In this document: positions 4,725 through 30,870 of the stretch, piece by piece
Position numbering within the stretch: the first letter of the stretch is position 1
Layout: each line of letters begins with the position of its first letter
Source of the DNA: an uncultured virus (IMG/VR IMGVR_UViG_3300014159_000004)
Lineage: Duplodnaviria > Heunggongvirae > Uroviricota > Caudoviricetes
Length of the DNA: 33,188 nt
Strand: one strand, 5' to 3'
Virus record (IMG/VR): IMGVR_UViG_3300014159_000004
Notes under the pieces: model-generated
What the model saw: only the letters and a program-made list of their open reading frames with translations
What the model was told of the DNA's origin: nothing
Database searches by the model: none
Translations under genes and position numbers: made by a program

Positions 4725-4749
4725 TTCCGATAATGGTCTGTTATCGGAA
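4725..4749. promoter_or_regulatory. lox/res-like inverted repeat, probable recombinase binding or crossover site
   Basis: TTCCGATAA-N7-TTATCGGAA just upstream of the recombinase start; extra CCGATAA half-site at 4771-4777. Confidence 0.7.
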
Positions 4750-5058: not shown

Positions 5059-5997
5059 CTATGCGAGCCCCGCACTGACCCGCTGCCGCTGGATCCGCGT
5101 CCGGACGTCCTCCGGGTCGACCCAGCTCGCCGGCGCGCCTGCGGGGCGCCAGTAGACCGAACAGGCCACTAAACCGTCGGCGATGACGATCCACGCGCCC
5201 GCGCGCGGCAGCTCAGGTGGTTGGCCGGACTGCTGCCAGCGCAGAAAGAGGGCGCGTGCAGCCTCCGCCGGAGTGAGTCCGACCAGCATGGGGGCACCGC
5301 ACGGCAGGTAGATGTTCGCGGTCCTGCCAGAAAGGACAATGAGTCCGCTTGCTTCGGCGAGCGCGCCGTCGAGGGGGAACGTGCGGATCCGGATGTCACC
5401 GAGCGCGATGTCATGCGACACCGACTCCAGCGGCTCGATCGCCTGCTGGACGAGTCGCGCGAGTCGCAACCGTTCCGCCGACGTGTCCGGCGACCCGACC
5501 GACGGGTGCGCTGGCGAGGATCCCGGCGAGCCACCCGCTGGGTGCCACGGGGGCGCTGCTGCGGGGTGGCCCGGAGGTTGACCTGGGGACCAGCCTACGG
5601 GGTCACCCTGCGGGTAACCTGGGAACTGTCCCGCAGGTTGACCCGCGGTCGGCTCGGGAGAACCTGGCGAGATCCTGCGGACCATCCAGAGATGGCCCAC
5701 TCGCTCGACATAGCCGAGCGCCCCAAGCCTGTGCAGCAGCGCGTTGCCCGCGAGCGAGTGGCTCCCGCGCGATCTCGGGCTCCCGCTGCGGTCCAGTCGG
5801 TCCGGCCACATCTTCATCGAGAAGTCGGCCGCCGATAGAGCCCCGCTGCGGAGCACGTCGATCGCTCGACTGACTTCGGCCGGTTTCAGGTCGTACACGC
5901 CATCGCCAGGATAACGCGTGAGAACCTCAGCGCAATACTGGCGTGCTAGGTTGCTGGTCTCTCGGGGGCGCGGGAGGTTCTCGGAGAACATGGACAT
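5059..5997 (-). CDS. Hypothetical protein with possible winged-helix N-region and Pro/Gly-rich linker
   Basis: Long ORF from ATG 5997 with ~8-aa repeats (GQPAGQFPGYPQGDPVGWSPGQPPGHP). Confidence 0.55.
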   Translation of the reverse strand: MSMFSENLPRPRETSNLARQYCAEVLTRYPGDGVYDLKPAEVSRAIDVLRSGALSAADFSMKMWPDRLDRSGSPRSRGSHSLAGNALLHRLGALGYVERVGHLWMVRRISPGSPEPTAGQPAGQFPGYPQGDPVGWSPGQPPGHPAAAPPWHPAGGSPGSSPAHPSVGSPDTSAERLRLARLVQQAIEPLESVSHDIALGDIRIRTFPLDGALAEASGLIVLSGRTANIYLPCGAPMLVGLTPAEAARALFLRWQQSGQPPELPRAGAWIVIADGLVACSVYWRPAGAPASWVDPEDVRTRIQRQRVSAGLA

Positions 5998-8948: not shown

Positions 8949-9020
8949 CCGCCCAGAGGCCCGGTTGGCCTGCGATTGCTGATAACGATCGCGCGCTGCG
9001 TTCAACTCGCAGTGGGCGGA
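8949..9020 (+). tRNA. tRNA-Ile(GAT)
   Basis: gattg-CTGATAA-cgatc. Confidence 0.82.
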
Positions 9021-9044
9021 CAACGTGCTAGATCGAACCGCGCG

Positions 9045-9566
9045 ATGGAACCGCAGACGCTCGTGCTCACCCCGCACATGACTCCCCACCGGATCGCCGG
9101 TTGGCAGGAAGCGATCGTGCTCGTCTACACGGACAAGGTCGACGTGCTCGAGGAGTACGAGGCGACGATCTCGAGCCCGTCGGTGACGTTGCAGGTGCCC
9201 GCGGTGCTGCGCCTGCGCAAGGAGATGTCGCTCTTCAAGAAGGGCACGAAGTACAGCCCAGCGAACGTCATGCTCCGTGACAAGCACACGTGCTGCTACT
9301 GCGGCCAGAAGAAGCGGCCGCGCGATCTCAACATCGACCACGTCGTCCCGCGCGCGCAGGGCGGCAAGACGACGTGGCTGAACTGCGTCTCCTCGTGCCC
9401 GAGCTGCAACCGCCGCAAGGGGGCGCGCACGCCGGCGCAGGCAGGACTGAAGATGCACTTCCAGCCGCACGTGCCCAGGCAGTTGCCGTTCGCGCCGCTG
9501 CTGCTCATCGCGAAGGTGCCCGACCTATGGGTCCCCTACCTGTCGGCGAGCGCGCAGACGGCGTAG
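9045..9566 (+). CDS. HNH endonuclease (McrA/HNH_5-like) inside the tRNA array
   Basis: RDKHTCCYCG...NIDHVVPRAQGGKTTWLNCVSSCPSCNRRKG. Confidence 0.93.
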   Translation: MEPQTLVLTPHMTPHRIAGWQEAIVLVYTDKVDVLEEYEATISSPSVTLQVPAVLRLRKEMSLFKKGTKYSPANVMLRDKHTCCYCGQKKRPRDLNIDHVVPRAQGGKTTWLNCVSSCPSCNRRKGARTPAQAGLKMHFQPHVPRQLPFAPLLLIAKVPDLWVPYLSASAQTA

Positions 9567-12046: not shown

Positions 12047-12079
12047 ATGCTTGACTGAGCCTCAACGGTCAAGCATACT
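12047..12079 (+). promoter_or_regulatory. Transposase promoter overlapped by an inverted-repeat operator
   Basis: TTGACT-N17-CATACT; IR ATGCTTGAC/GTCAAGCAT (12047-12055 and 12068-12076). Confidence 0.7.
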
Positions 12080-12086
12080 GTCCAGT

Positions 12087-12959
12087 ATGAACACGCTGGA
12101 CGCCGCCACCCGCACCCGCATCGTCTCGGCCCTGGTCGAGGGGAACTCGATCCGCGCGACGTGCCGCATGACCGGCGCGGCGAAGGGCACCGTCTTGAAG
12201 CTCCTGGCGGACCTCGGCGCCGCCTGCCGCGCGTACCACGACGCGAACGTGCGCGGCCTGCACTGCAAGCGGCTCCAGTGCGACGAGATCTGGTCCTTCT
12301 GCGGCGCCAAGGACAAGAATGTCCTGCCCGACGAGGAAGGCTTCGGGCGCGGCTCGATCTGGACGTGGACCGCGCTCGACGCGGACACGAAGCTGATCGC
12401 CGGCTACCACATCGGCACGCGCGACGCTGGCTGCGCCTACGAGTTCATGACCGACCTCGCGTCACGCATCGAGACGCGCGTGCAGCTCACGACCGACGGA
12501 CACAAGGCGTACATCAACGCGGTCGCCGACGCGTTCGGGCCGTCGAATATCGACTACGCGATGCTCGTGAAGCTGTTTGGCGAGACGCCGGCCGGCGCAG
12601 GTCGCTACAGCCCGCCCGCGTGCATCGGGATCGAGATGCGCCCGATCATGGGCGAGCCGGACATGGAGCACGTGTCGACCTCGTACGTCGAACGCCAGAA
12701 CCTCACGATGCGGATGTCGATGCGCCGGTTCACGCGGCTCACGAACGCGTTCTCGAAGAAGTGCGAGAACCTCGCGCACGCGGTCGCGCTCCACTTCATG
12801 CATTACAACTTCTGCCGCGTGCACCAGACGCTCCGCGTGACGCCGGCCATGGCCGCGGGGCTCACGGATCATGTGTGGGAGATCGGCGAATTGATCGCGC
12901 TCATGCCGAAGCCGGTCGCGAAGCCGTGGGGGAGCGTGAAGCGCGCGGCGGTCGCCTGA
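12087..12959 (+). CDS. IS1-family DDE transposase, single ORF
   Basis: HTH (EGNSIRATCRMTG), QCDEIWSF, LTTDG, STSYVERQNLTMR...RFTRLT. Confidence 0.9.
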   Translation: MNTLDAATRTRIVSALVEGNSIRATCRMTGAAKGTVLKLLADLGAACRAYHDANVRGLHCKRLQCDEIWSFCGAKDKNVLPDEEGFGRGSIWTWTALDADTKLIAGYHIGTRDAGCAYEFMTDLASRIETRVQLTTDGHKAYINAVADAFGPSNIDYAMLVKLFGETPAGAGRYSPPACIGIEMRPIMGEPDMEHVSTSYVERQNLTMRMSMRRFTRLTNAFSKKCENLAHAVALHFMHYNFCRVHQTLRVTPAMAAGLTDHVWEIGELIALMPKPVAKPWGSVKRAAVA

Positions 12960-12963: not shown

Positions 12964-13356
12964 TCAACGCTGCGGCACCTTTGCCTTGAAGCCTCGCGGG
13001 GTGAATTGCGAACGGTGGAGCCCGATCCGCATCCTAGATAGGAGCGCGTCTGCAATGCACGTCTGTTTGCGGCCTGGTTGCAACGTATCGGTGTCCCCGG
13101 CCTCTACCTCTCGAAGGCCTCGGTAGAACACGTAGCTTTCGTGGGTGATGAACGGGTGCGCGTCCGGATCGCCGGGGCGAAGGATGCACGAGCGGTCCAC
13201 GAACCTATCCACCGTCGTGACGTTCACGATCGTGGCGCACACCGCGAGCGAATAGTCGGGCGTGTAGACAGCCAGGACGACCCACAGGTGATCGACGACC
13301 GCCGTCTTCGACGGGTTGAGCAGAAACGCATCCCCCGCCTCGACGGTTCCCCTCAC
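12964..13356 (-). CDS. Putative toxin, PemK/MazF-like fold
   Basis: GDAFLL...HLWVVL...IVNVTT...HPFITHESYV; coupled downstream of a Panacea gene. Confidence 0.55.
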   Translation of the reverse strand: MRGTVEAGDAFLLNPSKTAVVDHLWVVLAVYTPDYSLAVCATIVNVTTVDRFVDRSCILRPGDPDAHPFITHESYVFYRGLREVEAGDTDTLQPGRKQTCIADALLSRMRIGLHRSQFTPRGFKAKVPQR

Positions 13357-13934
13357 GACGAATGGATCAACCTATCGACTGCTGCGAGATACTTTGCGCG
13401 CTTGGCGCGATCGCTGATTGCTTCGTCGTTCTCGCCGACCGCGCGGAGAATGTCAGCGGCCGGCAATGGTGCAACCTTCGCGGGCTTGGGGTGCTTCCAC
13501 TCCGGAAGCCCGTGGACCACGTCGATCAGATGCGTGTATGAAACACGCTTATACTTCTTCGCGAGATCTGTCAGAACGCCGACGTCGTAATCCGAAAGCT
13601 GATCGTCGCCCGGGTCCTCTACAAGCTCGACGTTGTAGCCTTGGGTGCGGATGCAGTGGTCCCAAAGACTGTCGGCGACCTCGACCTCCCCCTTGATGCA
13701 GTTGTAGACCTCACTCAGAACAGGCCCGTTCGCCATGGACACGAACGTAGAGCCGGTGATCGGCTGACCGGTCTCGATCAGCGATTGCCTGTCGGCGAGG
13801 TACAGCTCCTTCAGGATGGACGTGTAGTTCTCGGTACCACCAGCCTCGCGCAGGAGAACGGCAGCAGCTTGCACGGCTCGACGTTCGTCAAACCGGAACC
13901 TGAGTTCGCCCCCCGCTTCCAATAGCATCGTCAA
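13353..13934 (-). CDS. Panacea (DUF4065/SocA-like) antitoxin
   Basis: LKELYLADRQSL..TGQPITG..FVSMANGPVLSEVY. Confidence 0.85.
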   Translation of the reverse strand: MTMLLEAGGELRFRFDERRAVQAAAVLLREAGGTENYTSILKELYLADRQSLIETGQPITGSTFVSMANGPVLSEVYNCIKGEVEVADSLWDHCIRTQGYNVELVEDPGDDQLSDYDVGVLTDLAKKYKRVSYTHLIDVVHGLPEWKHPKPAKVAPLPAADILRAVGENDEAISDRAKRAKYLAAVDRLIHSS

Positions 13935-14687: not shown

Positions 14688-14932
14688 TCGTCGGCCTCCA
14701 GCTTGTCGAGTCGCGCGATCTGGTCGCACAGTCGCCTGCGCGCGCAGCGCCAGGAGCAGGCGTCGAAGTGCTCGCTCGCCGACGCGCGCTCTCCAGACCG
14801 ACCGTCCGCAACCGACAGCATCACGATGAGGCCGTTCGTGTTGCGCGGGGAGGTCACCGCGATGGAGTTCCCGCAGACCGCGCACGCAATCGGCTCGGCC
14901 TCGCGAGCGACGGGGGACCCCTTGCGCCTCAT
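14684..14932 (-). CDS. Hypothetical Zn-binding protein
   Basis: CAVC...CSWRC; ATGA coupling. Confidence 0.55.
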   Translation of the reverse strand: MRRKGSPVAREAEPIACAVCGNSIAVTSPRNTNGLIVMLSVADGRSGERASASEHFDACSWRCARRRLCDQIARLDKLEADE

Positions 14933-15339
14933 CGCGCCTTTGGGCGCCTCGCCAGCCCCTCGCGCACCCCCTGCGTCACGAGCGTGAGCTCCTTCGGGCT
15001 CAGCGTGGCGCACGTCGCGATGAGCCTGGTGACCGTGCGCGCGCTCACGGCCGTCCCGGCGCGCTCCGGGTGGGGCGCCACCGGCGGCAGCTTGGGTAGC
15101 GGAGGCAGCTTGGTCTCGTCGATCTTGCCCGCGGCGTCGTGGGGCACGCTCACCTTGAGCGTGCCCTTCGCGATCCCGGCGCGCACGCCGGCCGTGACGG
15201 CCGCGAGCTCCGGGTCGTTGAGCGAGAGCGCCATCGCGACGCAGTGGGCGACGAGCGCGAGGTCGGGGTCCACGCGGGCGGTCTTCTTCTTCGCGCGGAT
15301 CGCTTCCCGGAAGGCGGTGACGGCGGCGGATTCGGGCAT
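14929..15339 (-). CDS. Hypothetical protein
   Basis: ORF from ATG 15339 coupled to next gene. Confidence 0.6.
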   Translation of the reverse strand: MPESAAVTAFREAIRAKKKTARVDPDLALVAHCVAMALSLNDPELAAVTAGVRAGIAKGTLKVSVPHDAAGKIDETKLPPLPKLPPVAPHPERAGTAVSARTVTRLIATCATLSPKELTLVTQGVREGLARRPKAR

Positions 15340-15386
15340 GCCTGGGAGGGTAGCACCGTGCACAGCCGCCCGCAGTCGGCACTTGC

Positions 15387-16870
15387 CCGAGGCGCCGCGA
15401 TGCCGTAGCCACACGGGAAAGGAAGAAATACTCCGACGCCTCTACCCTAGCCGCGATCTCCGAGGCGCCGCGGTGCCGCAACCATCTGCAGAGCATGAGT
15501 GCTGTTCCGGCACCGGAGATCGGGCCGCGATCTCCGAGGCGTCGCGGTGCCGTAGTCACACCAGCCTGTGACCATGGAGCAGTAGTCGGCGTAGTCGCGA
15601 TCTTCGAGGCGCCGCGATGCCGCGATACCCGTCCGTCCTCGCGAGTTCAGTAGGTCGCGGTCTCACGAGGCTCCGCGATGCCATCATCAACCATCCAGGC
15701 CGCCACGGTGCGAGCAGGTCGCGGTCTCAGAGGCGTCGCGATGCCATAGCCACGGCACGGGCGCATCGGTCGTCCGTGTGGTTGATCAGGTCGCGATCTC
15801 CGAGGCGCCGCGATGCCGTAGCCACGAGAGCGAGGTCGACCACTTCGACTCGTGGCTCCAAGTCGCGATCTCCGAGGCGCCGCGATGCCATAGCCACCCG
15901 ATCGACGGGTACAAAACTCGCTCGTCCCACTTGGTCGCGATCTCCGAGGCGCCGCGATGCCGTAGCCACACGGGAAAGGAAGAAATCCTCCGACGCCTCT
16001 ACCCTAGCCGCGATCTAAGAGGCGCCGCGGTGCGGCAGCCATCTGCAGATCACGAATCAACTCACTCCCGGTCGCGATCTTATAGGCGCCGCGATGCCGT
16101 AACTACGGGCGCGCCTTGCAGGTCATGACCTGCATCATGCACCGAGCCGCGATCTCCGAGGCGCCGCGATGCCGTAGCCACTTCGCCGCGCTCGTCGAGA
16201 CGACGCTCGGCCGGAGCGTGTCGCGATCTCCGAGGCGCCGCGATGCCGTAGCCACAGGATCTGCACGCGCGCGCCACGACCCAGCGAAGTCGCGATCTCC
16301 GAGGCGCCCCCCGCGCACCCAAATAACCCGCACGCGCCCGTCATTCGTCGACTCTCCTCTTCGGTGGTGGTCTCTTCGGTAAGTTCTGCAGGACCGCCGG
16401 GTCGCGATCTCCGAGGCGCCGCGATGCCGTAGCCACTCGTCACCCATCGCATCAGCCACCTGATGCGCCGTGTCGCGATCTCCGAGGCGCCGCGATGCCG
16501 TAGCCACCGGCATTGCGATTGAAGCACGCGACCGACTACACGGTGTCGCGATCTCCGAGGCGCCGCGATGCCGTAGCCACGAGAGCGAGGTCGACCACTT
16601 CGATTCGTGGCTCCAAGTCGCGATCTCCGAGGCGCCGCGATGCCGTAGCCACGTCGTCGGGGGCATCAGGATGGCCAGCGAGGACGCGTCGCGATCTCCG
16701 AGGCGCCGCGATGCCGTAGCCACCGGATCTGCGGCTGGCCCGGCGACTGTTCGCTCACCGGGTCGCGATCTCCGAGGCGCCGCGATGCCGTAGCCACGTC
16801 GGGATACGACGGTCGACGTTGTGGCGATCAGATTGTCGCGATCTCCGAGGCGCCGCGATGCCGTAGCCAC
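15387..16870 (-). CRISPR. CRISPR array: 21 repeats (some degenerate or truncated) and 20 spacers; repeat GTGGCTACGGCATCGCGGCGCCTCGGAGATCGCGAC
   Basis: 36-bp repeat, mostly 33-39 nt spacers; perfect copies near the cas gene and degenerate copies distally, so transcribed on - from a leader at 16871-16968. Confidence 0.97.
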
Positions 16871-16968
16871 AGGTGGCCGAAAAACGTTCCGATTTTCAAA
16901 GACCTGCGCGGCCGCCTGCGAGCGCCGCCCCGATCGGGTAGCCGACCCGGGCGCGACCTGCCAGTTGA

Positions 16969-19026
16969 CTACTCTGCCGCCCGGCCGAACCCCTCGACGC
17001 GCCTCGACTTCTTCGCCCCGCGAGCGCCCCCACCCACGTTCACGCCGCCCGAGGGCTCGCCCGAGTGCCGGTCGTAGAGATGCTTGGCCGCGTTGAGGTC
17101 CTGGTCGTAGACCTGCCCGCACGCGAAGCAGGTGACCGGGATCTGCGGCAGCGGGTCAGACGACTCGCCGCCGCAGCCGTGGTGCTCGACCGTGATCCGC
17201 TCGCTCGGCGCCCGGTGCACGTTCGCCTCGCCGAACGCCGCCTCGAGCGCGTCTACCAGCTCGCTCACGCACGCGAGCACGCGGTTGCTGTTGCCGCGCA
17301 CCTCTTGCTCGGTGCGGGTGTCGGCCTCGGGGTCCGGCGTCTCGGCCGTCTCGGACTTGTTCCACTGCTCGATGACGACGCGCTCGTAGCGGGCGGCCAA
17401 GTCGCGCGCGTAGCACCGGTAGCGGTCTCTCCTCGACCGGCGCAGGCGCAGGTCGTTGTTCCTGGCCCAGTTGACGAGGTGCCGGTCCTTGGCCCGCCAC
17501 CAGTCGAGGTAGACCGCGAGCACCTGGTCCGCGCTCACGACCCCGCGCCCGGCGAGCCACGCCTTGATCTCGTCGAGCGGCCCGAACAGGTCCAGCTTCG
17601 GCGACCGCTCGAGTCGCCACGCCTTCCAGAGCGCGGGCACGTCGACCCCGCGCGCCTCGAGCCAATCTCTGCGCAGGTCCAGAGCCACCCGCGCGAGCCG
17701 ACCGTGGCTGCGCCAGGCGTGCACCGTGTCGAGCGACCAGGCGGCGACCTGCTCGGGCGAGAACAGGCTGCGCTCGCCCCCCTTGAACCAGCCGGCCAGA
17801 GCGTCCCTGACCGCGAGGAAGTGCTCGTCCGCGTACGACAAGAGGCGATCGGCGAGGTCCGACCCCTCGCGGAAGGATCGCGGCAGCACCAGCCGGTCCT
17901 CCGCGCGCGAGGCGCTGCCCGACCACGGCGTCGCGACCCGCAGGTCACCGTTCTTGAGCGCGCGCCAGCCGAGGTTCAGCGCGATGGTCCCGCGCGCCCC
18001 CGCGCTCTGCGCCCGCGCCCGGTCGACCGAGTCGCAGGTCAGCTGCAGCTCGTAGTGCCACACGAGGCCGACCCGCCGCGCGACGACGTACGCCCAGCGC
18101 ACCCGCGCCTCCGGGGCCATGTCCCGGTGCCACACGACCGGCAGGTGCAGCCACGTCGCCTGGTCGCCGCGCCCGGACAGGTGCAGGTGCACGACCGCGT
18201 ACCGGGTGCCGTTCGCGCGCGCGGTCATGTCCGCGGGGAACTCGACGCGGACCTGACCGACCGCGGCGCCGACGACGTCGTCGGCCGAGAGCCCGCCGCC
18301 CCGGACCTGCAGCCCCACGCGCTCGCACTCGAGCCGCGAGAACGGCGGGTCCCCGGCGCACTCAGCGAACGACTTCTCCGCGGCGGCCTCCACGGCGAGG
18401 TACGTCCCGACGGCGCACCCGCACTCGGCGCGAGCGCGCTTGGCGAGCGCCTCGTGCTCCATCTGCGACCGGGTCTTTGCCTTCCACGGCTCGCCGACGG
18501 CCGGGTCGGCGAGCGCACGCTCGCGCACCGCTGCCGTGATCGCCGCGAGCACGTGCGGGCCGATTGGCCCCGGGTCGGCGCCGCGCGCGAACCGGGCGAC
18601 CGCGCACGCGAAGCCCACGGCGGCCGTCACGGACTGCTTCGCCTCGCGGTACTTCTGATCGGCGGCGCCGAACACGTCGGCAGTCGTCCGGTCGCGCGCC
18701 TCGGCGTACGCCTTCCAGGCGCCCGACCGCGCTGCACTCAACCGGCGCACCTCGGCGGCGACCGGGTGCCGCGCGCGCTCCGCGCGCGGCACGCCCGACA
18801 AGAGCCGGCGCCCCTCGACGACCGCGCGGTCGGCCGCCGCGTAGGCGGCGTGGAGGTGCGCGAGCTCGGGCGACAGGGAGTTTCGGAGGTCGCGGTACGC
18901 CGCCCGGCGCGAGCGCTCGATCTCCACGAGGCGGTTTCGGTAGCGGTGCGCGGCGCGCACCTCGCGGTCGATGATCTGGCGCGCCTCGAGCGGCAGCGGA
19001 CCGATCCCCCACTTGTAGACCAGCAT
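16969..19026 (-). CDS. cas12m: Type V-M (V-U1/C2c4) Cas12m-like effector, RuvC-I Asp replaced by Asn
   Basis: AHRYRNRLVEIE N-terminus, long coiled coil, WLHLPVVWHR, RuvC-I TIALNLGWR, RuvC-II VVIE, H..C/C..C Zn finger, RuvC-III YDQDLNAA; abuts the array; GAGGAG RBS. Confidence 0.85.
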   Translation of the reverse strand: MLVYKWGIGPLPLEARQIIDREVRAAHRYRNRLVEIERSRRAAYRDLRNSLSPELAHLHAAYAAADRAVVEGRRLLSGVPRAERARHPVAAEVRRLSAARSGAWKAYAEARDRTTADVFGAADQKYREAKQSVTAAVGFACAVARFARGADPGPIGPHVLAAITAAVRERALADPAVGEPWKAKTRSQMEHEALAKRARAECGCAVGTYLAVEAAAEKSFAECAGDPPFSRLECERVGLQVRGGGLSADDVVGAAVGQVRVEFPADMTARANGTRYAVVHLHLSGRGDQATWLHLPVVWHRDMAPEARVRWAYVVARRVGLVWHYELQLTCDSVDRARAQSAGARGTIALNLGWRALKNGDLRVATPWSGSASRAEDRLVLPRSFREGSDLADRLLSYADEHFLAVRDALAGWFKGGERSLFSPEQVAAWSLDTVHAWRSHGRLARVALDLRRDWLEARGVDVPALWKAWRLERSPKLDLFGPLDEIKAWLAGRGVVSADQVLAVYLDWWRAKDRHLVNWARNNDLRLRRSRRDRYRCYARDLAARYERVVIEQWNKSETAETPDPEADTRTEQEVRGNSNRVLACVSELVDALEAAFGEANVHRAPSERITVEHHGCGGESSDPLPQIPVTCFACGQVYDQDLNAAKHLYDRHSGEPSGGVNVGGGARGAKKSRRVEGFGRAAE

Positions 19027-19047
19027 TCTAGCGTTCTCCTCTCGAGG

Positions 19048-19218
19048 TCACTTGATGAGGTCCTCTCGCTTCAACTTCCTGAGCGCGCTGCGCAGGCGTT
19101 CCTTGGAGTGGTCGCTCAAGAGCACGGAGATCCCGTGCTCGAGAGCGCGCTTGACGGTGCGCGGGTCGAGCTGGGCCTCCAGCGCGATCCGCATGAGTGT
19201 GGGTCGGTCGACTTCCAT
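19048..19218 (-). CDS. Small HTH-like protein (56 aa), not in ORF track
   Basis: MEVDRPTLMRIALEAQLDPRTVKRALEHG...; AGGAAGG RBS. Confidence 0.6.
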   Translation of the reverse strand: MEVDRPTLMRIALEAQLDPRTVKRALEHGISVLLSDHSKERLRSALRKLKREDLIK

Positions 19219-19254
19219 CTTTGCGCCTTCCTGGTCGGGGTCCCGCCCCGCAGT

Positions 19255-19662
19255 CTACTCGTCGAGCTCGTCGATCTGGCGCCGCAGCTCCTTCTCCGAG
19301 AGGTTGGAGAGTTTCCCGTCCTGCTTCTCGGCGAGGATCGCGAGCAGCTTCTCCTTCCTGACCTTCCTGTCCGCCCGCCTCTTCGCGTCCTCCTCCTCGG
19401 CGAGCCTCGCGTCGATGACGCACTTGACGATCTCCAGCGCGGTCTCGCGCCGGTCGTGCTCCGGCGTCCGAGCGGTCTCTACGAAGCTCTCCTCGGCGAG
19501 GTCCTTCCACGCCTTGTTGGCGGCCTTCGCGACGGCGTTGAGGTTGAAGTCGTCTTTCGACCGCAGGGGGACGTCCCAGAGCTGCTCGGTGGAGAGTTCC
19601 CCCCTGACGGACTGGAACCGGAGCTTGTTGCGGGTGGCGTACGCGAAGATGTCGGTGACCAT
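19255..19662 (-). CDS. Phage-type coiled-coil hypothetical protein
   Basis: IFAYATRNKLRF.S.RG.LS.EQLWD.PL...EESF...LLAILAEKQD; GAGGAG RBS. Confidence 0.8.
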   Translation of the reverse strand: MVTDIFAYATRNKLRFQSVRGELSTEQLWDVPLRSKDDFNLNAVAKAANKAWKDLAEESFVETARTPEHDRRETALEIVKCVIDARLAEEEDAKRRADRKVRKEKLLAILAEKQDGKLSNLSEKELRRQIDELDE

Positions 19663-19682
19663 GGTCTCACTCCTCTGCCGGC

Positions 19683-21752
19683 TCACGCGCCGACCTTGAT
19701 GTTGAACACTCGCTGCTTTCGGCCCTGGTGGACCCGGACGATGAACGACTCGCGCTTGGTCGACGAGAAGCCGAGCCCCGAGAGCTGCCCCTCGGTGGGG
19801 GCGCACTTGGTCTTGTCGCCGATGACCTCGAAGACTTTGCGGTGCGGCTCGAGGCGCGGGTGCAAGAACTCGTTATAGAAGCCGCGCGTCGGCTCGTCGT
19901 TCTTGCACCCGTCGATGAGGAAGAACGTGTGCTTGTTGCCGACCGCGCTATCGCCCCAGTAGTTCGGACTCAACATGACCGCGCTGACCTTCACGTACTG
20001 CTCGGTCGTGAGACCCCACTTCTCCTGCGAGATGTTGGCGGCGGTGATGCCCGGGTCGCCGACCTCGACCTTCTCGACGACGCCACCGCGCACGTGGAGG
20101 GTCACGACGGCGACGTCCTGTTGACCGCGAACGCCCTTGTTGTACGAGAAGTGCGAGAGCTTGCCGCCACTTTCTACTTCGACGACGAACCCCGGGTTGC
20201 TCGTCTCGCGCTGCGTGAAGTTGTTGACGACGACGCGGTACGCGCCGTCCGGAGGCGGCGCCGACCACACGACGTTCTCGACGGCCTCGCGGGTCGTGCC
20301 GTGGCCCGCGTTCATGTCGACGTCGAGCGTGCCGCCCGTCCACCCGCGCTTGTTGCGGAAGTAGATGTGGTCCTCGAACGCGTGGCGCCCGCGCCCCGGC
20401 GGCTCGTGCACGTGCAGGTCGAGGTCGTCGAAGTTGAACCAGGAGAGCGACACGCGCAGCGCCGCGCCCTCCACCTTGCCGCCGGCCTTCTTCACGCGCT
20501 CCTTGATGCTGTCCGCGACGTTGCCGCCGTAGGACCACGCGAAGTCGTTGTCCCACCGGAAGAGCTGCTTCGGCTCCGGGTGCACGGGAGCCGTCAGTGA
20601 CACCAGGTTGCCGACGTGCTCGCTCTTGAAAAACAGCTCAAGGCTCGTCGTCTCGGGCAGCACCCTCGCCACGAAATCGTCGATCCCGATCGGCTCCGCG
20701 CGCTCCGCGTCGTGCTCTGCGCTCCGGCTCACCGCGGTCGCGTGCTGCATGAGCACATCCCCGATGCCGCCCTTCATCAGCGGCTTGACGGTCCCGTCGA
20801 CCCACTTCACGTCGTTGACGGACACGTCGCTGATGACGGCGAACCGCCGCTCGAGGGCGGACTCGAGGCCGAGCACCTCGATCGTCTCCATCGCCTTCTT
20901 CACCATGCCGGGCGTGATGATGGCGGTCGTGCGCTTGTAGTTCTGCGGCGCGACCTTCGTCTCGAAGGCGCGCACCGCTTGCTCGACGTCCTGGCCACCG
21001 GACAGGTCCTGCACGAGCGTGCCGATCACGGTGTTGCGGAAGCGCGCAGCGGGGTGACCCGCGTTCGCCCACGCGAAGAGGGAGCGCCCGCGACCCTCGC
21101 TCCTCGAGAGGTACGCGCGCTGCGCGGCCATGAAATTCACGATCGCGAACTTGTGCTCCTCGCCGCGATAGAGCGCGCCAGCCTCCACGAGCGAGAGCGC
21201 GGTCTCCACCGCGCTCGGGGTCAGCTCGACCAGCCCGCGCTCGAAGACCTGCACCGTCGTGCGGTAGTCGCCGCGCACCTGGTCGGGCGTCTCCGACCGC
21301 AATTTTCTCGGGATCTCCCCCGTGTAGAGGTGCTGCCACGTGAGAGCGCGGCCGGTCTCCCTGTCGAGCGACCGCGACAGGGCCGCGCCGAAGCTCACCT
21401 CCCTCTCGCCCACGCGAAAGAGGTCGCAGACGCTCGCGGCGCGCACGACGTCCTGCAGATACGTCGCCACCACCTGGTAGACGCCCATCCCCTCCACGGC
21501 GGCCCGGTCCCAGACCGTGTTCAGCACGCCGTCGTCGCCGATGGTCACGACAGCGCCGGCCCGGCGAATGAAGTGCCGGCAGCAGCGGCAGTCGTGCTCG
21601 GTCGACTTCTTGAAGATCGAGTCGGCGCCGGCGGGAAACGCCGCGATGTACTCCTCGTACAGCGAGCCGACGTCCGCGACGAAGACGTCCTGGGACTTCG
21701 TCAGCTGCTGGAATGACTCCGCGACCGTCCTAGCGAACACTGAGAAATCCAT
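19683..21752 (-). CDS. Large phage-type protein with YfaP/DUF2135-like domain
   Basis: HDCRCCRHF; LRVSLSWFNFDDLDLH...LDVDMNAG...AVENVVW; LSGLGFSST. Confidence 0.8.
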   Translation of the reverse strand: MDFSVFARTVAESFQQLTKSQDVFVADVGSLYEEYIAAFPAGADSIFKKSTEHDCRCCRHFIRRAGAVVTIGDDGVLNTVWDRAAVEGMGVYQVVATYLQDVVRAASVCDLFRVGEREVSFGAALSRSLDRETGRALTWQHLYTGEIPRKLRSETPDQVRGDYRTTVQVFERGLVELTPSAVETALSLVEAGALYRGEEHKFAIVNFMAAQRAYLSRSEGRGRSLFAWANAGHPAARFRNTVIGTLVQDLSGGQDVEQAVRAFETKVAPQNYKRTTAIITPGMVKKAMETIEVLGLESALERRFAVISDVSVNDVKWVDGTVKPLMKGGIGDVLMQHATAVSRSAEHDAERAEPIGIDDFVARVLPETTSLELFFKSEHVGNLVSLTAPVHPEPKQLFRWDNDFAWSYGGNVADSIKERVKKAGGKVEGAALRVSLSWFNFDDLDLHVHEPPGRGRHAFEDHIYFRNKRGWTGGTLDVDMNAGHGTTREAVENVVWSAPPPDGAYRVVVNNFTQRETSNPGFVVEVESGGKLSHFSYNKGVRGQQDVAVVTLHVRGGVVEKVEVGDPGITAANISQEKWGLTTEQYVKVSAVMLSPNYWGDSAVGNKHTFFLIDGCKNDEPTRGFYNEFLHPRLEPHRKVFEVIGDKTKCAPTEGQLSGLGFSSTKRESFIVRVHQGRKQRVFNIKVGA

Positions 21753-21784
21753 CGCCGCCCTCACTCAGGTCAAAATGACGCCCC

Positions 21785-21808
21785 GCACTCGGCGGACCCG
21801 CCGAGTGC
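21785..21808. other. Strong hairpin between tRNA-Arg and the downstream gene
   Basis: GCACTCGGCG-GACC-CGCCGAGTGC; no clear U-tract. Confidence 0.5.
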
Positions 21809-21831
21809 CACGACTCTGTCGCTCCCAAGAA

Positions 21832-21907
21832 GGACCCTGCGGCACGACTCGAACGTGCGGCCCCCGGTTCCGTAGACCGGTGCTCTTCCAACTGAGCTAC
21901 GAGGGTC
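21832..21907 (-). tRNA. tRNA-Arg(ACG), stand-alone
   Basis: Canonical TAGCTCAGTTGGA D-arm; ccggt-CTACGGA-accgg. Confidence 0.88.
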
Positions 21908-21913
21908 GAGCGG

Positions 21914-21942
21914 ATGATGCACTCTGCTGCAGGCTGAGTCAA
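21914..21942 (-). promoter_or_regulatory. Candidate sigma70 promoter
   Basis: TTGACT-N17-CATCAT on - strand, 6 nt before the tRNA. Confidence 0.55.
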
Positions 21943-22029
21943 GCGCTCGCGTACGATTTTTCTCCGCGCGAACCTCCCACGGCTCTTACCGCGCCCACTA
22001 GGCCGCCGAAACCGGCTACGCTGCCGACC

Positions 22030-23742
22030 ATGGCGAACCAGATCACCCTGGCCTTTTCCGTCGCGACCGCGAGCACCATCTACACGCCCGCGCAGGCCGC
22101 CGCCAAGCTGAGCGCGGTCCCGCTCTTCGCGTCGGTCGGCAACGACCCGGTGCTCGGGCAAGCGCTCGGGCTCACCGTCGTCGACGACATCGTCTCCGAC
22201 GGCGGCGTGACGTACACGGGCGAGGCGGGCGGGCCGTTTCTGCCGGGCGAGACGGTCACCGACTCGCCGAGCGGCGGGACAGCCACGGTCGCCCTCGACT
22301 TGGACGGGGTGCTCTACTTCGAGCTCGGCACGGCCGTCGGCACCTTCGCGCACGGCGACACGATCACGGGCAGCACGTCCGGCGCGACGGCGACCGTGAA
22401 CAACGCGGCCGCCCTCGGCGGGCCGACGCCAACGACGCCGGGAGCGACGCGCGTGCTCGTGCTCAACATGACGGCCCTGACCTCCCCGTACGCCCCGCCG
22501 CCGTCGCCGTGCCGGCCGACCGGCCCGGTCGACCCGCCGCCGGACGCCCCGCCGCAGCTGCCGTACACGCTCACGCAGACGACGATCAACCGCTACACGC
22601 AGCTGCCGGTGACGACCCCGGCGCCCGCGCAGTACGTCGCCTTCTACTCGTCCTCCGAGCTCGACACCGACGGCGTCTCGACGACCCCGGCGATCCCGGC
22701 CGGCGCGGGCGCGCAGATCATGGCGCTCGAGTATTACGACTCGACCGGCGCCGGCCCCTTCGCGGTCTTCGCGAAGCTGATGGGCAAGTTCCCGGCGCCG
22801 GTCACGCTCGCCGGCGGCAGCGTCGACGTCGCGCAGGTGACCCAGTGCTTCATCGAGCAGGTCGGCGCGTTCGGCAACTCCGTCGGCCAGATCACCCTCT
22901 GCGCGCTCGAGGCCCCCCTGCCGGCCATCCCCGCCACCGCCACGCCCGAGGACTTCCCGGCGCTCACCGACGCCGCACAACTGACGATCGCCCGGCCGCT
23001 CGTCTACATGCCCCCCAGCTACTTCGCGCTCGCGCAGCAGCAGAACAGCGCGCCGCAGCTCGCCGGCGACTTCGTCGTCGAGCGGGGGTCGCCGACCGTG
23101 CTGACGCCGGTCAGTCAGCTCAGTGTCCTGGCGGCGACCAACGTCCTGGAGTTCGCCTCCCAGCCCGGGGTGCAGTACGAGATCGCGTCGGTCAGCGCGA
23201 CGTTCGTGAAGCTCACGACGCCGTACACGGGCCTGTCGCACGCAGAACTCGCGCCGGCCGCGGAGGACCCGAGCCCGGCGCAGTCCGTGAGCGACCGGAC
23301 CGACGGGGTCGTGACCTCGGCGGTCCTCGTGTCCCCCTCGCAGGCGGCGCCGCCGGACGACGCGCACCTCTTGACCCCCCTCAGCGAGTTCACGCTGCCG
23401 CAGTCGACGGTGCCGGCGCTGACGTACTCTGCCGAGAGCGGCCCGTTCACGCCGACCGAGACCGCGGTGGGGCAGAAGAGCGGCGGCACGGCCACCGTGC
23501 TCTACGACGACCAGGGCGCCGACGCGTCCGGGACGCTCGCCTTCGCCTCGGGCTCGCTCAAGAGCGGGTTCATGCGGGGCGAGACGGTCGTCGGCAAGAC
23601 GTCCGGCGCGACCGCGACTGTGGTCAACCCGAGGACGCTGGCGAGCAACCCGCAGCCGGCGAACCTGAGCGGTCTCTACGCCCGCACGCTGTCGCTCGTG
23701 CTCGGCGCCCCGGTCGTCGCGCAACCGATCACGCTGATCTGA
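22030..23742 (+). CDS. Putative virion structural protein with repeated F..G(E/D)T(V/I).G..SG(A/G)TATV modules
   Basis: Four copies of the motif in two pairs; Ala/Thr/Pro/Val-rich. Confidence 0.7.
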   Translation: MANQITLAFSVATASTIYTPAQAAAKLSAVPLFASVGNDPVLGQALGLTVVDDIVSDGGVTYTGEAGGPFLPGETVTDSPSGGTATVALDLDGVLYFELGTAVGTFAHGDTITGSTSGATATVNNAAALGGPTPTTPGATRVLVLNMTALTSPYAPPPSPCRPTGPVDPPPDAPPQLPYTLTQTTINRYTQLPVTTPAPAQYVAFYSSSELDTDGVSTTPAIPAGAGAQIMALEYYDSTGAGPFAVFAKLMGKFPAPVTLAGGSVDVAQVTQCFIEQVGAFGNSVGQITLCALEAPLPAIPATATPEDFPALTDAAQLTIARPLVYMPPSYFALAQQQNSAPQLAGDFVVERGSPTVLTPVSQLSVLAATNVLEFASQPGVQYEIASVSATFVKLTTPYTGLSHAELAPAAEDPSPAQSVSDRTDGVVTSAVLVSPSQAAPPDDAHLLTPLSEFTLPQSTVPALTYSAESGPFTPTETAVGQKSGGTATVLYDDQGADASGTLAFASGSLKSGFMRGETVVGKTSGATATVVNPRTLASNPQPANLSGLYARTLSLVLGAPVVAQPITLI

Positions 23743-23748
23743 CCGGGG

Positions 23749-23967
23749 TCACCCGCCGCCGTACGGCTTGCCGTTCGGCAGGATCTGCCGGACCTCGAAC
23801 GTGAGGCCCCTGCTAAGGGCCCGCTGCTCGGCCAGGTCGGGGTCGATCTCGGGCCCGTAGACGACCCTGTACCGCCGGATCTGCCCGGCGAGGTTGGTCA
23901 GCCACTGGGAGGTCTCCCGGCACCAGATCCCGTACGGGCCGCGGTTCGTCGGTGCGTCGTCGCTCAC
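23749..23967 (-). CDS. Hypothetical protein
   Basis: GTG-start ORF with codon usage like neighbours. Confidence 0.45.
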   Translation of the reverse strand: MSDDAPTNRGPYGIWCRETSQWLTNLAGQIRRYRVVYGPEIDPDLAEQRALSRGLTFEVRQILPNGKPYGGG

Positions 23968-23981
23968 TTCAGGCGCGCGCC

Positions 23982-24470
23982 TCAGTGCAGGGTGGGCGGG
24001 TGCAGCGAGAGCCACATCCACGTGGCTGTGAACGCCCCCGCGAAGGCCCCGAGCGTCGCGCCCACGAGCAGCGTGACCAGGCGCGACGCGGAGGGCACGA
24101 CGGCCAGGATGGCGCGCGCCGTCAGCATCTTCACGGCCGACTCGCTCAGGCGCGTCGCGATCTCCATGAGCCTCTTTCTCTCCTCGCCGATCTCGGCGAG
24201 CTTCGCGGCCCACTCCCTGTCGTTGTTCTCGACGCGAGCGGCCAGGGTCTCGATGACGGCGATCTCGTGCGTCTGCCGCGCGTGGATCATCTCGAGCGTG
24301 ACCGGCAGCTCCGGGAGCGTCTCGGCGTCGTGCAGGTCGTCGTGCGGGAGCCGGCGCGGCGTCGCGGCTGGGTCCGGGATGACGGGCCTCGGCGGGGCCG
24401 CCGGGACCGACAGCGGGAGCGGTGGCGGCAGTCCGGCGACCTTGTCGTCTCTGTCGCTACCTCCGGTCAT
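23982..24470 (-). CDS. Coiled-coil protein with C-terminal TM segment
   Basis: LVTLLVGATLGAFAGAFTATWMWL. Confidence 0.6.
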   Translation of the reverse strand: MTGGSDRDDKVAGLPPPLPLSVPAAPPRPVIPDPAATPRRLPHDDLHDAETLPELPVTLEMIHARQTHEIAVIETLAARVENNDREWAAKLAEIGEERKRLMEIATRLSESAVKMLTARAILAVVPSASRLVTLLVGATLGAFAGAFTATWMWLSLHPPTLH

Positions 24471-24685
24471 CGCTCGACGACCCACCCTAGCCGAGACGGC
24501 CCGCGTCGCGCCGGCGAATTTTGTCCCAGATGGGCGAAAATTCGCCCGGTCGGGCGGCCGGCGCGCGGGAAGTCACGCGATCGGCCCTGGAGAAGTGGCG
24601 ACTGGGTCACCGTCGACTCGACCGCTGCGGACACGTCCCAAGACTATGCTGAGCCCCGACCGACCGGCAAGGACTCTTCGCGCGC

Positions 24686-25153
24686 TCACTTGAGATAGTG
24701 CCCGGCCGCCGCTGCGGCGAGGGCCGCCACGACCGCTAGCAGGATGTCCCACCGCCGGTCGGCCGCCTTCTCGACGCGCTTGTCCACGCTCGCCTCGAGC
24801 GCGGCCCTCTCCGCCTCCGCCTTGATCGCGCGCTCGCGCGCCTCGGCGATCTTGTCGGCCGCCGCGCGCTCGGTCGCCTCGCGCAGCTGCCGCTGCAGCT
24901 CCTCGATGTCGAACCGGTCGGTGTCGGTCCGCTCGCGCGTTCGCACCCGCTCCTGCACGACGACGAGCGCCGGCGGCGGCGGGCGCGACGCCGAGTAGAC
25001 CCGCACCTCGTGCGCGATGGCGATGGGGTCCGTGCTGTCGCGGTCGCGCAGTCGGGCCATGGCGGCGCCCGGGTCGTCCGCGCCCACGTACTCGCGGGTG
25101 AGCTGGGCGATCTCTTCGCGGTCCTTGTCCGTCAGTTTGCGGGGAGGGGTCAC
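24686..25153 (-). CDS. Coiled-coil protein with C-terminal TM anchor
   Basis: RRWDILLAVVAALAAAAAGHYLK. Confidence 0.65.
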   Translation of the reverse strand: MTPPRKLTDKDREEIAQLTREYVGADDPGAAMARLRDRDSTDPIAIAHEVRVYSASRPPPPALVVVQERVRTRERTDTDRFDIEELQRQLREATERAAADKIAEARERAIKAEAERAALEASVDKRVEKAADRRWDILLAVVAALAAAAAGHYLK

Positions 25154-25206
25154 GACGCCGCGATCCTACAACGACACCGCGACCCCCCGCGACCGCGAAC
25201 CTGCGC

Positions 25207-26607: not shown

Positions 26608-26633
26608 GGGTCACCTCGTGGTGCGTTTGGGTT

Positions 26634-27316: not shown

Positions 27317-27318
27317 CT

Positions 27319-29584: not shown

Positions 29585-30067
29585 TCATCCCGACCTCCTG
29601 CGCGTCCCGGCCACGATCCGAGCGACCGACGTCCGGTGCAAGCCGAGCCGCCGCCCGATCGCCGTGAACGACTCGCCCGCCTGCGCGGACTCGCGGATGG
29701 CAGCCACCACCGAGTCGCCCGTCGCCTTCCGCGGTCCACCGCGTGGGTGCGTGCCATGCACGCGCTTGTCGGCCTCGTTCTCCTCGGGCAGCGCCCAGCG
29801 CAGGTTGCCCGCGCGATTGTTGCCGCGGTCCCTGTCCGGGAAGTGCGCGCCGTGGTGGCGCGTCGAGGGTCGCGGGGCCACGAACGCCTCGAGCACGAGC
29901 GCGTGGACTGGCCGCCAGACCCGCCGGCCGTCGGGCGACACCAGCCGGACCCTCAGGTAGCCGCCGCGCCACTGCGGCAGGAGCGCGAGGCGCCCGCGCC
30001 GGACGTGGCCGCCGCGGGAGACGCGGTAGCCTGGGAAACCCGCGATCGGGCGCCAGATGGGTCTCAC
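29585..30067 (-). CDS. NUMOD4/HNH_3 endonuclease with C-terminal HTH
   Basis: WRPIAGFPGYRVS..G; GYLRV; VHALVLEAF; H...DRGNNRAGNLRW. Confidence 0.85.
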   Translation of the reverse strand: MRPIWRPIAGFPGYRVSRGGHVRRGRLALLPQWRGGYLRVRLVSPDGRRVWRPVHALVLEAFVAPRPSTRHHGAHFPDRDRGNNRAGNLRWALPEENEADKRVHGTHPRGGPRKATGDSVVAAIRESAQAGESFTAIGRRLGLHRTSVARIVAGTRRRSG

Positions 30068-30261
30068 CTGTCGCCCCGACGTCGCACCCTCATCGCGTCC
30101 CCGAAGGTGGTCCGCAGCGTCGGTTTGCCCGCCGCGCGCAGCGCATCCTCCTCGCGCTTGCGTCGCTGCATGCGCTGGAGATCGGTCTCCTCCACGGGTG
30201 ACCTGTCTGGATCGCAGCCGGAACACCCCGCGCACCCAAATAACCCGCACGCGCCCGTCAT
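30064..30261 (-). CDS. Hypothetical protein
   Basis: ATGA-coupled ORF with Cys-rich start. Confidence 0.5.
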   Translation of the reverse strand: MTGACGLFGCAGCSGCDPDRSPVEETDLQRMQRRKREEDALRAAGKPTLRTTFGDAMRVRRRGDR

Positions 30262-30602
30262 TCGTCGACTCTCCTCTTCGGTGGTGGTCTCTTCGGTAAG
30301 TTCTGCAGGACCGCCGGCGTCGGCACCTCACGACCGCGCGGCGCGAGTCCGCGGCTGACGAGGTTCGCGTAGGCGGGGACGACGCGCCCGTGGACGCTGG
30401 TGACCCACCCGCGCTGCTTGTCCGAGAGCTGGTGGAACGGCCTACCGGCGTCCGTCCCGTCCAGGATCCCGCCGTACGCCTGCAGGTCGAAGCGCATGCT
30501 GGCAAACGCCTCCGTCTCGCGGTCAGTGAGCTCGTCGGCGTGCTTGCCTAGCAGTTCGCCGAGGAGGTTGAGGTCGGAGGTGCGCTTCGAGTCACTGATC
30601 AT
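30258..30602 (-). CDS. Hypothetical protein
   Basis: ATGA-coupled ORF; LSDKQRGWV. Confidence 0.65.
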   Translation of the reverse strand: MISDSKRTSDLNLLGELLGKHADELTDRETEAFASMRFDLQAYGGILDGTDAGRPFHQLSDKQRGWVTSVHGRVVPAYANLVSRGLAPRGREVPTPAVLQNLPKRPPPKRRVDE

Positions 30603-30870
30603 CGCAGATCAAGAGTCTGCACGAGCCACGCGATGAGTGTATCCGTTCGCTCGCCATTCTCGGATCGGGTCTGCATTTCCGTCATCGCACTCCATCGCCG
30701 CTCCACAGAGACGCCGCAACTCCCACCGTTTGCCTCCAGAAACGTCGAGAGCGCGGCCCACCCGCTCCGTTTGTTGCTGTCCATGAAGACGTGCCCCTGG
30801 ACGATATAGACGGCGTAGGCTGCCGCGATCTCGGGCACCGACTCGTAGTACGAGTTGTTGACGGCACGGC
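30599..30870 (-). pseudogene. Fic/Doc toxin fragment lacking its N-terminus
   Basis: AAAY...IVQGHVFMDSNKR resembles the Doc motif HxFxD(A/G)NKR. Confidence 0.7.

Follow-up and report, generated by a model that had tools for sequence, protein, structure and literature searches.

A stretch of 33,188 nucleotides (nt), referred to here as the window, from the uncultured virus record IMGVR_UViG_3300014159_000004 of IMG/VR carries a CRISPR array in which one unit is a 92-nt copy of the element's own genes. The record to which the window belongs comprises 117,319 base pairs (bp), is classed as linear and has a CheckV completeness estimate of 100%. The element is best explained as a phage or phage-like element of about 117 kb with a type V-M CRISPR module, consisting of a gene for a presumably nuclease-dead Cas12m and an array, without cas1 or cas2. 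The self-derived unit is real and inherited. With moderate confidence, we regard it as the scar of an aberrant integration or recombination event, rendered harmless by an effector that presumably cannot cut and by the probable lack of a protospacer adjacent motif (PAM) at the matching site. All positions refer to the window unless another record is named.

The array spans 15377..16870 on the minus strand and is built on a 36-nt repeat, with 21 repeat copies when a truncated one is counted. Perfect repeats occupy the part next to cas12m (16220-16870), and degenerate ones the distal part (15377-16181). The insert occupies a spacer position at 16309..16400 (minus strand) and equals 30226..30317 (minus strand), in the same orientation, over 92/92 nt, in a match that cannot be extended by one base on either side. 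Only these two copies exist in the whole 117,319-bp record, and an exact 92-nt repeat in 117 kb is not attainable by chance. Compared with a normal spacer length of about 36 nt, the insert is oversized; the other 19 spacers measure 22-39 nt and show no match elsewhere in the record beyond chance hits of 11-20 nt, which leaves the insert as the sole self-matching unit of the 20. Six normal spacers and seven perfect repeats lie between it and the cas12m side.

In the sense of the CRISPR RNA (crRNA), a full repeat (16436-16401) is followed by the insert (16400-16309), by repeat positions 17-36 (16308-16289) and by an older spacer (16288-16256). The truncated repeat, 16289..16308 on the minus strand, has lost its 5' 16 nt in crRNA sense, including the 5' arm of the scaffold stem. 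It corresponds to the first 20 nt of the plus-strand repeat and is identical to 16401-16420, the last 20 nt in crRNA sense of the complete repeat at 16401..16436 (minus strand). The insert is therefore flanked by a 20-bp direct duplication. A first-pass annotation of the window, made from its letters, had described the 92-nt identity, the neighboring repeat shortened by 16 nt and the six normal spacers on the leader side, and the repeat and spacer layout agrees with it on each point. The layout is most simply described as an insertion of 92 bp into a single repeat, accompanied by a duplication of 20 bp and not by the normal duplication of a 36-bp repeat. Since the truncated repeat upstream lacks the 5' arm of the stem, the 33-nt older spacer behind it (16256..16288, minus strand) has presumably lost its crRNA scaffold and is probably dead.

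The same anatomy is found in independent samples. The stretch 14900-19100 is present in 20 public runs of 17 studies (wetland 2017, lake water 2020, freshwater 2023), among which no RNA runs are listed. Logan contigs of four runs (X1, X5, X8 and X12) were placed on 15300-17100, and bridging of a junction was judged by a strict rule of 31 letters. In X5 (freshwater, 2023), a single unbroken contig with one differing letter covers 16219-16436, including the truncated repeat, the insert and the next full repeat, and spans both junctions. In X8 (lake, 2020), a contig covering 16236-16388 spans the left junction. X1, a wetland run of 2017 that may represent the source sample, contains unitigs at 16229-16338, 16309-16400 and 16371-16426 with depths of 24.5, 41.8 and 19.3. 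The two outer unitigs extend 30 nt into the insert; they fall short of the rule by one letter at the left junction and, at the right junction, by one letter on the insert side and five on the repeat side, which is the usual behavior of k=31 unitigs at a repeat boundary. The 92-mer forms its own unitig at about double depth, the pattern expected for two copies per genome. X12 has no coverage at the insert position. By the strict rule, a junction is bridged in two of the four runs, and junction-specific sequence occurs in three.

These data bear on an assembly artefact, a chimeric join of the array with the distant locus, which the first-pass annotation had itself named as the outcome that would undo its claim. 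Such an error would be favored by the origin of the record from metagenome assembly and by a repeat that exceeds the usual k-mer length. However, junction-spanning contigs come from independent runs of 2020 and 2023, and the X1 junction unitigs have the same depth as their flanks. An artefact is barely credible, and because contigs from three habitats and years carry the junctions, misassembly is ruled out. The surroundings of the insert vary among the runs. In X5, the trailer (15301-15356) connects via 21 other letters to 16219, and in another variant, common to X5 and X12, a different spacer of 34 nt comes after 15301-15414. The neighborhood of the insert thus varies from strain to strain, and the insert represents one inherited unit in an otherwise changing array.

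Internal duplications are also visible in the array of the record. A 112-nt block of repeat, spacer and repeat occurs twice, at 15387-15498 and 15944-16055, with 94% identity, and one spacer is present twice with a single mismatch, at 15826-15861 in the older and partly degenerate part and at 16581-16616 among the six newest units. From these duplications, the array appears to have been reshuffled by recombination.

The insert consists of the last 19 codons of a gene designated p114, an ATGA overlap and the first 12 codons of the following gene, p65. We infer that a 92-bp piece of the phage's own DNA, covering the end of p114 and the start of p65, was inserted into one array repeat, and two origins could be envisaged. 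The first would be an aberrant staggered insertion of integrase type, in which the nick on the leader side fell 16 nt within the repeat. Two nicks, at the normal border of repeat and spacer and 16 nt into the repeat, followed by fill-in, would yield exactly the order of full repeat, 92 nt, repeat positions 17-36 and older spacer. Where the insert meets the leader-proximal repeat, the join is precise to a single base. Such an integrase would have to be supplied by the host, since the record lacks cas1 and cas2. Alternatively, an ordinary self-derived spacer could have been lengthened by illegitimate recombination or gene conversion from the target, with an illegitimate join inside the next repeat, which would leave the same sequence. 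As a speculation, breaks near an HNH endonuclease gene downstream of p65 may have supplied the piece. The insert would then have been carried passively beneath six newer spacers, because this Cas12m presumably does not cut and the protospacer most likely has no PAM (ACG, compared with the pyrimidine-rich published PAMs).

Two other routes were considered and rejected. Microhomology-mediated template switching does not fit, as the left junction shares no base and the GTCG shared by target flank and repeat at the right junction is offset by one base. The reverse direction of copying, from array to target, is contradicted by the C-terminus of p114, whose conservation across 29 aligned homologs identifies the gene as the source. 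Moreover, the p114/p65 junction is absent from 11 related loci, and the 92 nt therefore came from this lineage itself. Non-canonical or off-target integration by Cas1-Cas2 creates new repeat-like duplications elsewhere. The present case resembles it in that a piece was inserted with the duplication expected of a staggered cut, here of 20 bp. It differs in that the duplicated stretch falls short of a whole repeat, the inserted DNA has 2.5 times the length of a normal spacer and the record contains no Cas1-Cas2. Canonical Cas1-Cas2 integration does not fit, given a piece of 92 nt against 22-39 nt and a duplication of 20 bp against the 36-bp repeat.

Several features of the letters themselves place the crRNA sense on the minus strand. 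The cas12m gene lies on that strand immediately upstream of the array, repeat decay is directed away from it, and the minus-strand repeat GTGGC...ATCGCGAC (also written GTGGCTACGG...GAGATCGCGAC) folds with a 3' stem at a distance of one base from the spacer. In all nine of the published crRNAs compared, the spacer of Cas12m is directly preceded by ...GAGAC, ...GCGAC or ...AAGAC, including ...CUGAGAC, ...GCUGCGAC and ...UCCGCGAC, and the minus-strand repeat ends alike (Table S5, PMC11013384). In a related phage, G003, cas12m is followed by the array on one strand, with the repeat GTGGC...CGCGAC. The putative leader (16871..16968, minus strand) lies between the cas12m stop codon and the first repeat and has an A+T-richer patch beside that repeat; its placement is supported by the polarity of repeat decay and by the same layout in the related phage G002. 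A simple promoter and terminator scan of 15000-19300 returned nothing, with no sigma-70 consensus promoter in the leader, and Rfam gave sub-threshold chance hits only on the array.

Published Cas12m crRNAs combine a repeat-derived scaffold with a guide of 17-20 nt (PMC10442227; preprint 10.64898/2026.10.26.761838). Mature PmCas12m crRNA is reported to hold about 33 nt of repeat and about 17 nt of guide, and the PmCas12m protein to cut after repeat position 2-3 and at guide position 17-18 (preprint 10.64898/2026.03.26.714355). The insert begins CCGGCGGTCCTGCAGAAC in crRNA sense, and the complete repeat that precedes it would supply a full scaffold; a normal guide should therefore form. If the ortholog behaves like PmCas12m, the 92-nt length would be irrelevant and the unit should give an ordinary crRNA, with a guide starting CCGGCGGTCCTGCAGAAC. 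Such a crRNA would consist of the scaffold and the first 17-18 nt of the insert, and this guide would be perfectly complementary to p114, at the 3' end of the gene and on its template strand. The predicted protospacer for the first 17-20 nt lies at 30298..30317 (minus strand) and encodes PAVLQN(L). The guide has mRNA sense and would pair with the plus strand, that is, the template strand of the target genes.

The effector gene, cas12m, is located at 16969..19026 (minus strand) and encodes 685 amino acids (aa). In a phmmer search against PDB chains, the protein matched TfCas12m (23vw, E=9e-33) and UnCas12m4a (23vu, E=4e-6), in accordance with the Cas12m assignment of the first-pass annotation. 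The aligned 23vw sequence is the TfCas12m sequence given in the supplement of PMC11013384 and represents the closest solved relative. The family is large, with 2542 homologs at E<=1e-3, and Pfam and NCBIfam models gave no match to the 685-aa protein. Asn351 (ALNLGW) aligns with the first RuvC aspartate of TfCas12m (AIDLGW) and is invariant in four of four close relatives; the C-terminal zinc-finger/RuvC-III motif reads YDQDLNAAKHL. In this replacement of the first RuvC aspartate by asparagine, the protein resembles the N-D-D Cas12m orthologs. Eight orthologs with D-E-D, H-D-D or N-D-D sites are reported to have bound DNA in every case and to have cut in none (PMC11013384). Taken together, the alignment suggests an effector that binds without cutting.

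Further features agree with type V-M systems such as MmCas12m, GoCas12m, TfCas12m and PmCas12m, namely an effector homologous to TfCas12m and a 36-nt repeat with a 3' stem and a ...GCGAC end. The agreement extends to acquisition genes: V-U type loci are described as lacking them (PMC11013384), and Cas1 and Cas2 Pfam profiles matched nothing in the 117-kb record at E<=1, cas4 having not been searched. The protein differs from characterised Cas12m (about 570-610 aa) in being larger and distant. Close relatives are scarce. Protein searches found none in IMG/VR, relatives of at most 41% identity in genome contigs, and in metagenome contigs the record itself and matches of at most 36% identity. The insert is therefore not traceable into sister genomes by comparison of loci.

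The PAM position (30318..30322, minus strand) reads 5'-CGACG-3' in crRNA sense, with A at -3, C at -2 and G at -1. The wider flank is ...GCCGACG, in which ACG forms the Thr codon before PAVLQN. TTN is given as PAM or tested flank for Mm, Go and Ms Cas12m (PMC10442227, PMC11013384), YTN, YTTS and TTV for Pm, Mk and Pp (preprint 10.64898/2026.03.26.714355), and CCN-flanked targets were used for Pp and TfCas12m (Table S8, PMC11013384). ACG matches none of these five patterns. The first-pass annotation had read the same CGACG flank and set it against a TTN typical of Cas12m; the flank is indeed not TTN, but TTN alone is too narrow a standard, as TfCas12m was tested on CCN-flanked targets (PMC11013384), and ACG fits neither. 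Flanks of the form YYN occur at 23.7% of positions in this genome, and a randomly taken piece would therefore usually be without one. By comparison with the published orthologs, the self-protospacer most likely has no PAM.

Searches for other protospacers gave no usable match. The array region had no match in a phage collection or a plasmid collection, and the PAM-proximal parts of two spacers, used as exact patterns in IMG/VR, had 0 matches each. Against the related phage records G001 and G002, the best array match reached E=0.085, and against 11 related loci or records the best was 19/20 nt at E=0.025. The G002 and G003 arrays showed partial or low-complexity matches in related records, with no usable protospacer among them. 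The first-pass annotation had proposed either an aberrant acquisition, tolerated through a non-cutting effector or the lack of a PAM, or a self-regulatory guide acting on the downstream operon. The former is favored here by Asn351, the non-cutting orthologs and a flank outside the published Cas12m PAMs.

The regulatory alternative depends on the target locus. The source copy lies in a run of four minus-strand open reading frames (ORFs; 30838-30599, 30602-30258, 30261-30064 and 30067-29585) that overlap head to tail through ATGA, ATGA and GTGA. The first is a 79-aa Doc/Fic-like toxin fragment (30599..30838, minus strand) whose stop overlaps the p114 start (ATGA); it matches Fic (27.9 bits, E=4.3e-6) and the Doc-like toxin family phrog_577 (1.9e-10) over only the C-terminal third of the profiles. 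The second gene, p114 (30258..30602, minus strand), encodes a conserved phage protein of 114 aa with no assigned function, without a family in Pfam, NCBIfam or PHROG and with 82 homologs, many of them on contigs of 115-152 kb. PAVLQN is the most conserved motif of this family, and the guide falls on it. The third, p65 (30064..30261, minus strand), is a Cys-rich ORF of 65 aa whose start overlaps the p114 stop (ATGA). The fourth (29585..30067, minus strand), with a GTG start overlapping the p65 stop (GTGA), encodes an HNH endonuclease of homing type (NUMOD4 - HNH_3 - HTH, the last a helix-turn-helix). It matches phrog_59 (1.9e-24), phrog_1492 (1.2e-21) and phrog_959 (3.8e-20); the Pfam matches to HNH_3 (7e-4) and NUMOD4 (2e-3) are both under the Pfam cut-offs, and the domains HNH_3, NUMOD4 and HTH are in their usual order. 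The target had been placed by the first-pass annotation across the stop/start junction of 30258-30602 and 30064-30261, upstream of an HNH nuclease gene, and both the ATGA overlap and the phrog_59 match are in line with that placement.

Natural CRISPR interference (CRISPRi) would make use of this arrangement. Directed by the self-guide to the template strand of p114, at the 3' end of the gene, Cas12m could form a transcription roadblock that lowers expression of p65, the HNH gene and further genes downstream. One purpose might be the silencing of a selfish or toxic cassette. A full scaffold repeat precedes the insert on its 5' side, and the match of the first 17-20 nt is perfect. The target heads genes coupled in translation (ATGA, GTGA), just before the HNH gene, and p65 and the HNH gene look like an added cassette, being absent beside the p114 homologs at 11 of 11 related loci. 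The unit also persists beneath six newer spacers and in three sample sets. Cas12m is reported to silence genes from promoters or coding regions (PMC11013384; preprint 10.64898/2026.10.26.761838). Nevertheless, the ACG flank fits no published Cas12m PAM, no comparable unit was found in three related phage arrays, and about 17-18 nt would be used, so that 92 nt are not required. Regulatory crRNA-like RNAs, as far as the sources consulted describe them, use short partial matches to promoters and not a 92-nt intragenic copy. Natural CRISPRi is consequently considered rather unlikely. A narrower version, in which nuclease-dead Cas12m acts as a fixed-guide regulator throttling read-through into an invading HNH homing-endonuclease cassette, is a little more doubtful still. 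If true, a virus would be using a CRISPR guide to hold in check a selfish element that resides in its genome, and the ortholog would accept the purine-containing ACG flank.

Related phages provide a further test of the scar interpretation. Among ten related phage records found via p114, three encode Cas12m-like proteins, G002 and G006 (695 aa) and G003 (610 aa), each with an adjacent array. Self-matching spacers were found in none of the three arrays. The G002 array matches itself only, the G003 array itself and a palindromic overlap, and the one 24-nt self-match in G006 falls in the effector-gene part of the query, outside the array. Self-targeting is therefore not a conserved feature of the module. 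Conservation of the unit extends to near-identical strains and not to these three arrays. In the older part of the G002 array, truncated repeat remnants of 8-10 nt stand between spacer pairs (L039 4217-4224 and ~4331-4340); damaged repeats are therefore ordinary in these arrays.

The G002 array is large (L039 3558-5906, corresponding to G002:C1:45557-47905), with about 29 repeat copies found beside the gene for the 695-aa Cas12m-like protein, and it holds two repeat variants whose stems differ by compensatory changes. One of its spacers (L039 4178-4202) matches a gene conserved among related phages, over 24/25 nt at G001:C1:17254-17278 and with 86% identity across 29 nt in the present genome record (G000:C1:10625-10653). 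The match to G001 covers only the PAM-distal part and gives no PAM. It hints that phage arrays may aim at each other's kin.

A guide of this kind might serve as an anti-sibling weapon, excluding co-infecting close relatives through their p114 while the phage's own copy escapes by its flank. The motif under the guide is the best conserved in a family of 82 homologs, many of them on 115-152 kb contigs, and the G002 spacer with its partial match to G001 (24/25) and to the genome record is in line with targeting of phage by phage within this group. In addition, the contig graph of X5 and X8 does not merge the insert with a second copy, and the target may be missing there, a weak sign at depths of 2.8-6.6. 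The flank cannot separate self from sibling, because ACG is the Thr codon of the conserved TPAVLQN and relatives with the motif share A at -3 and C at -2. Homologous sites at the 11 related loci match only 12-16 of 20 guide positions. Moreover, the 92 nt include the p114/p65 junction, which occurs at none of those loci and identifies this lineage as the source. An exclusion role is accordingly regarded as improbable.

The two copies may also be viewed as a pair of 92-bp direct repeats 13.9 kb apart, which might serve, or have arisen from, the looping out or moving of cas12m and the six newest spacers. They lie on the same strand and bracket 16401-30225, including cas12m, and the record encodes a Sak4-like annealing protein and an exonuclease. 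On the other hand, no contig of the four runs shows a product that would need such an event, with the limitation that k-mer contigs cannot distinguish deletion junctions, and such an event would account neither for the 20-bp duplication nor for the location of the insert exactly where a spacer belongs. A recombination handle is thus very improbable.

The interpretation as a harmless scar is preferred over these alternatives, and a number of points weigh against it. We know of no characterised Cas1-Cas2 that produces a 92-bp prespacer with a 20-bp duplication, and no integrase of this type is encoded in the record. The insert is still identical to its source over 92/92 nt, with at most one differing letter across three habitats over six years; this conservation is compatible with selection, and inheritance within a clone accounts for it just as well. 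It could be more than chance that the guide is aimed at the best-conserved motif of p114, a gene that is itself conserved and heads the HNH cassette. The assumption of a site without PAM is an extrapolation from distant characterised Cas12m: phmmer aligns just two stretches to TfCas12m, and the 685-aa protein matched neither MmCas12m nor GoCas12m at E<=1. Finally, self-targeting relics often carry damage that disables the guide, and the repeat that would give the scaffold is intact here.

Self-targeting spacers are generally seen as accidents of autoimmunity. The present unit resembles them in its identity to the carrier genome, in the damaged neighboring repeat and in the probable lack of a PAM at the target. 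It departs from them in length (92 compared with about 36 nt), in that the damaged repeat stands behind the unit, so that the self-guide keeps its scaffold, and in the presumably non-cutting effector, which would leave no autoimmune cost to escape. A second point of comparison is provided by CreR, the crRNA-like RNAs (crlRNAs) of degenerate mini-arrays and the long trans-activating crRNA (tracrRNA) of Cas9, which are likewise CRISPR-derived guides to the carrier's DNA that would bind and not cut it. As described, these RNAs are stand-alone units in which degenerate repeats accompany a short, incomplete match to the promoter of a cas or toxin gene, and they are conserved across relatives (10.1101/2023.03.10.532045, 10.1101/2023.03.03.530964, 10.1101/2020.05.21.102756, 10.1101/2024.10.29.618823). 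By contrast, the unit described here belongs to the main array, matches 92/92 nt inside a coding run without cas genes and is absent from three related arrays. The units of V-K CRISPR-associated transposons share with it a nuclease-dead type V effector, an atypical unit, a truncated repeat and a fixed genomic match (10.1101/2021.02.06.429022). In the V-K account, however, the truncated repeat belongs to the guide and directs transposon homing to a tRNA site, whereas here it lies behind the unit and no transposition genes are linked to it.

Virus-borne modules of this kind have a precedent in the phage-encoded MvCas12m (MV-1), reported in September 2026 as the first such case (preprint 10.64898/2026.09.14.751636). 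A phage carrier of Cas12m is, as such, no longer new. In the parts of the Cas12m literature surveyed, a self-derived or oversized unit is not described, and a search on self-targeting spacers in phage-encoded CRISPR systems found no prior description. A wider search led to regulatory crRNA-like RNAs and truncated V-K units, and the passages covered mention no oversized self-copy. The finding combines known things, namely self-targeting spacers, aberrant integration and phage-borne Cas12m; this variant of them is new.

Regulation of a carrier's own genes by natural CRISPR systems is an old question, and most self-matching spacers have been dismissed as accidents. An effector that only binds removes the autoimmune cost, which means that a perfect self-guide can persist and could be co-opted. 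The element offers a concrete pair of guide and target on a phage, with natural array variants already present in public metagenomes. It also shows an abnormal insertion into a V-M array, with a 20-bp duplication around a 92-bp piece, which bears on how spacers are gained without an own cas1-cas2 pair. If the flank is a non-PAM, the unit is simply a well-documented harmless scar; if it is a working PAM, its importance would be greater.

Beyond the insert, the record has a phage-type gene content. In addition to the Sak4-like annealing protein and the exonuclease, a helicase, methyltransferases, homing endonucleases and an integrase are encoded elsewhere in it. PHROG families were matched by 11 of 45 scanned proteins outside the window (1e-5) and by 14 of 32 inside it (1e-3), most proteins being without a family.

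Parts of toxin-antitoxin systems cluster around the target, at 30599-30838, 31255-31859, 29100-29417 and 13353-13934, all on the minus strand. They comprise the Doc/Fic-like fragment, of which the N-terminal half is missing, a HigB-like toxin paired with an HTH antitoxin, a Phd/YefM-like ORF whose match stays below the Pfam cut-off and a protein with a SocA/Panacea domain. In G001 (L035 2902-3633), the p114 homolog measures 243 aa, carries the domain twice in tandem besides a Cys-rich tail, and is followed by a HigB/HigA-like pair in place of p65 and the HNH gene. A region outside the window (G000:C1:3344-3499), which overlaps the start of a 775-aa ORF (3360-5687), is 55% identical to p65 over 55 residues, and p65 may be a copy or fragment of it.

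The arm of accessory genes that holds the CRISPR module also contains a tyrosine integrase, an insertion sequence (IS)-type DDE transposase (weak Pfam matches) and a second HNH endonuclease gene, among the ORFs 3823-4722 (minus strand), 12051-12959 (plus strand) and 8976-9566 (plus strand). Beside cas12m, a 693-aa ORF (19683-21764, minus strand) matches phrog_1735, a family with no assigned function, from end to end (E=8.7e-226) and represents a widespread phage protein. Position 19446, between cas12m and this next large ORF, is C in the window and T in the genome record (G000:C1:80888), the sole difference in 33,188 bases.

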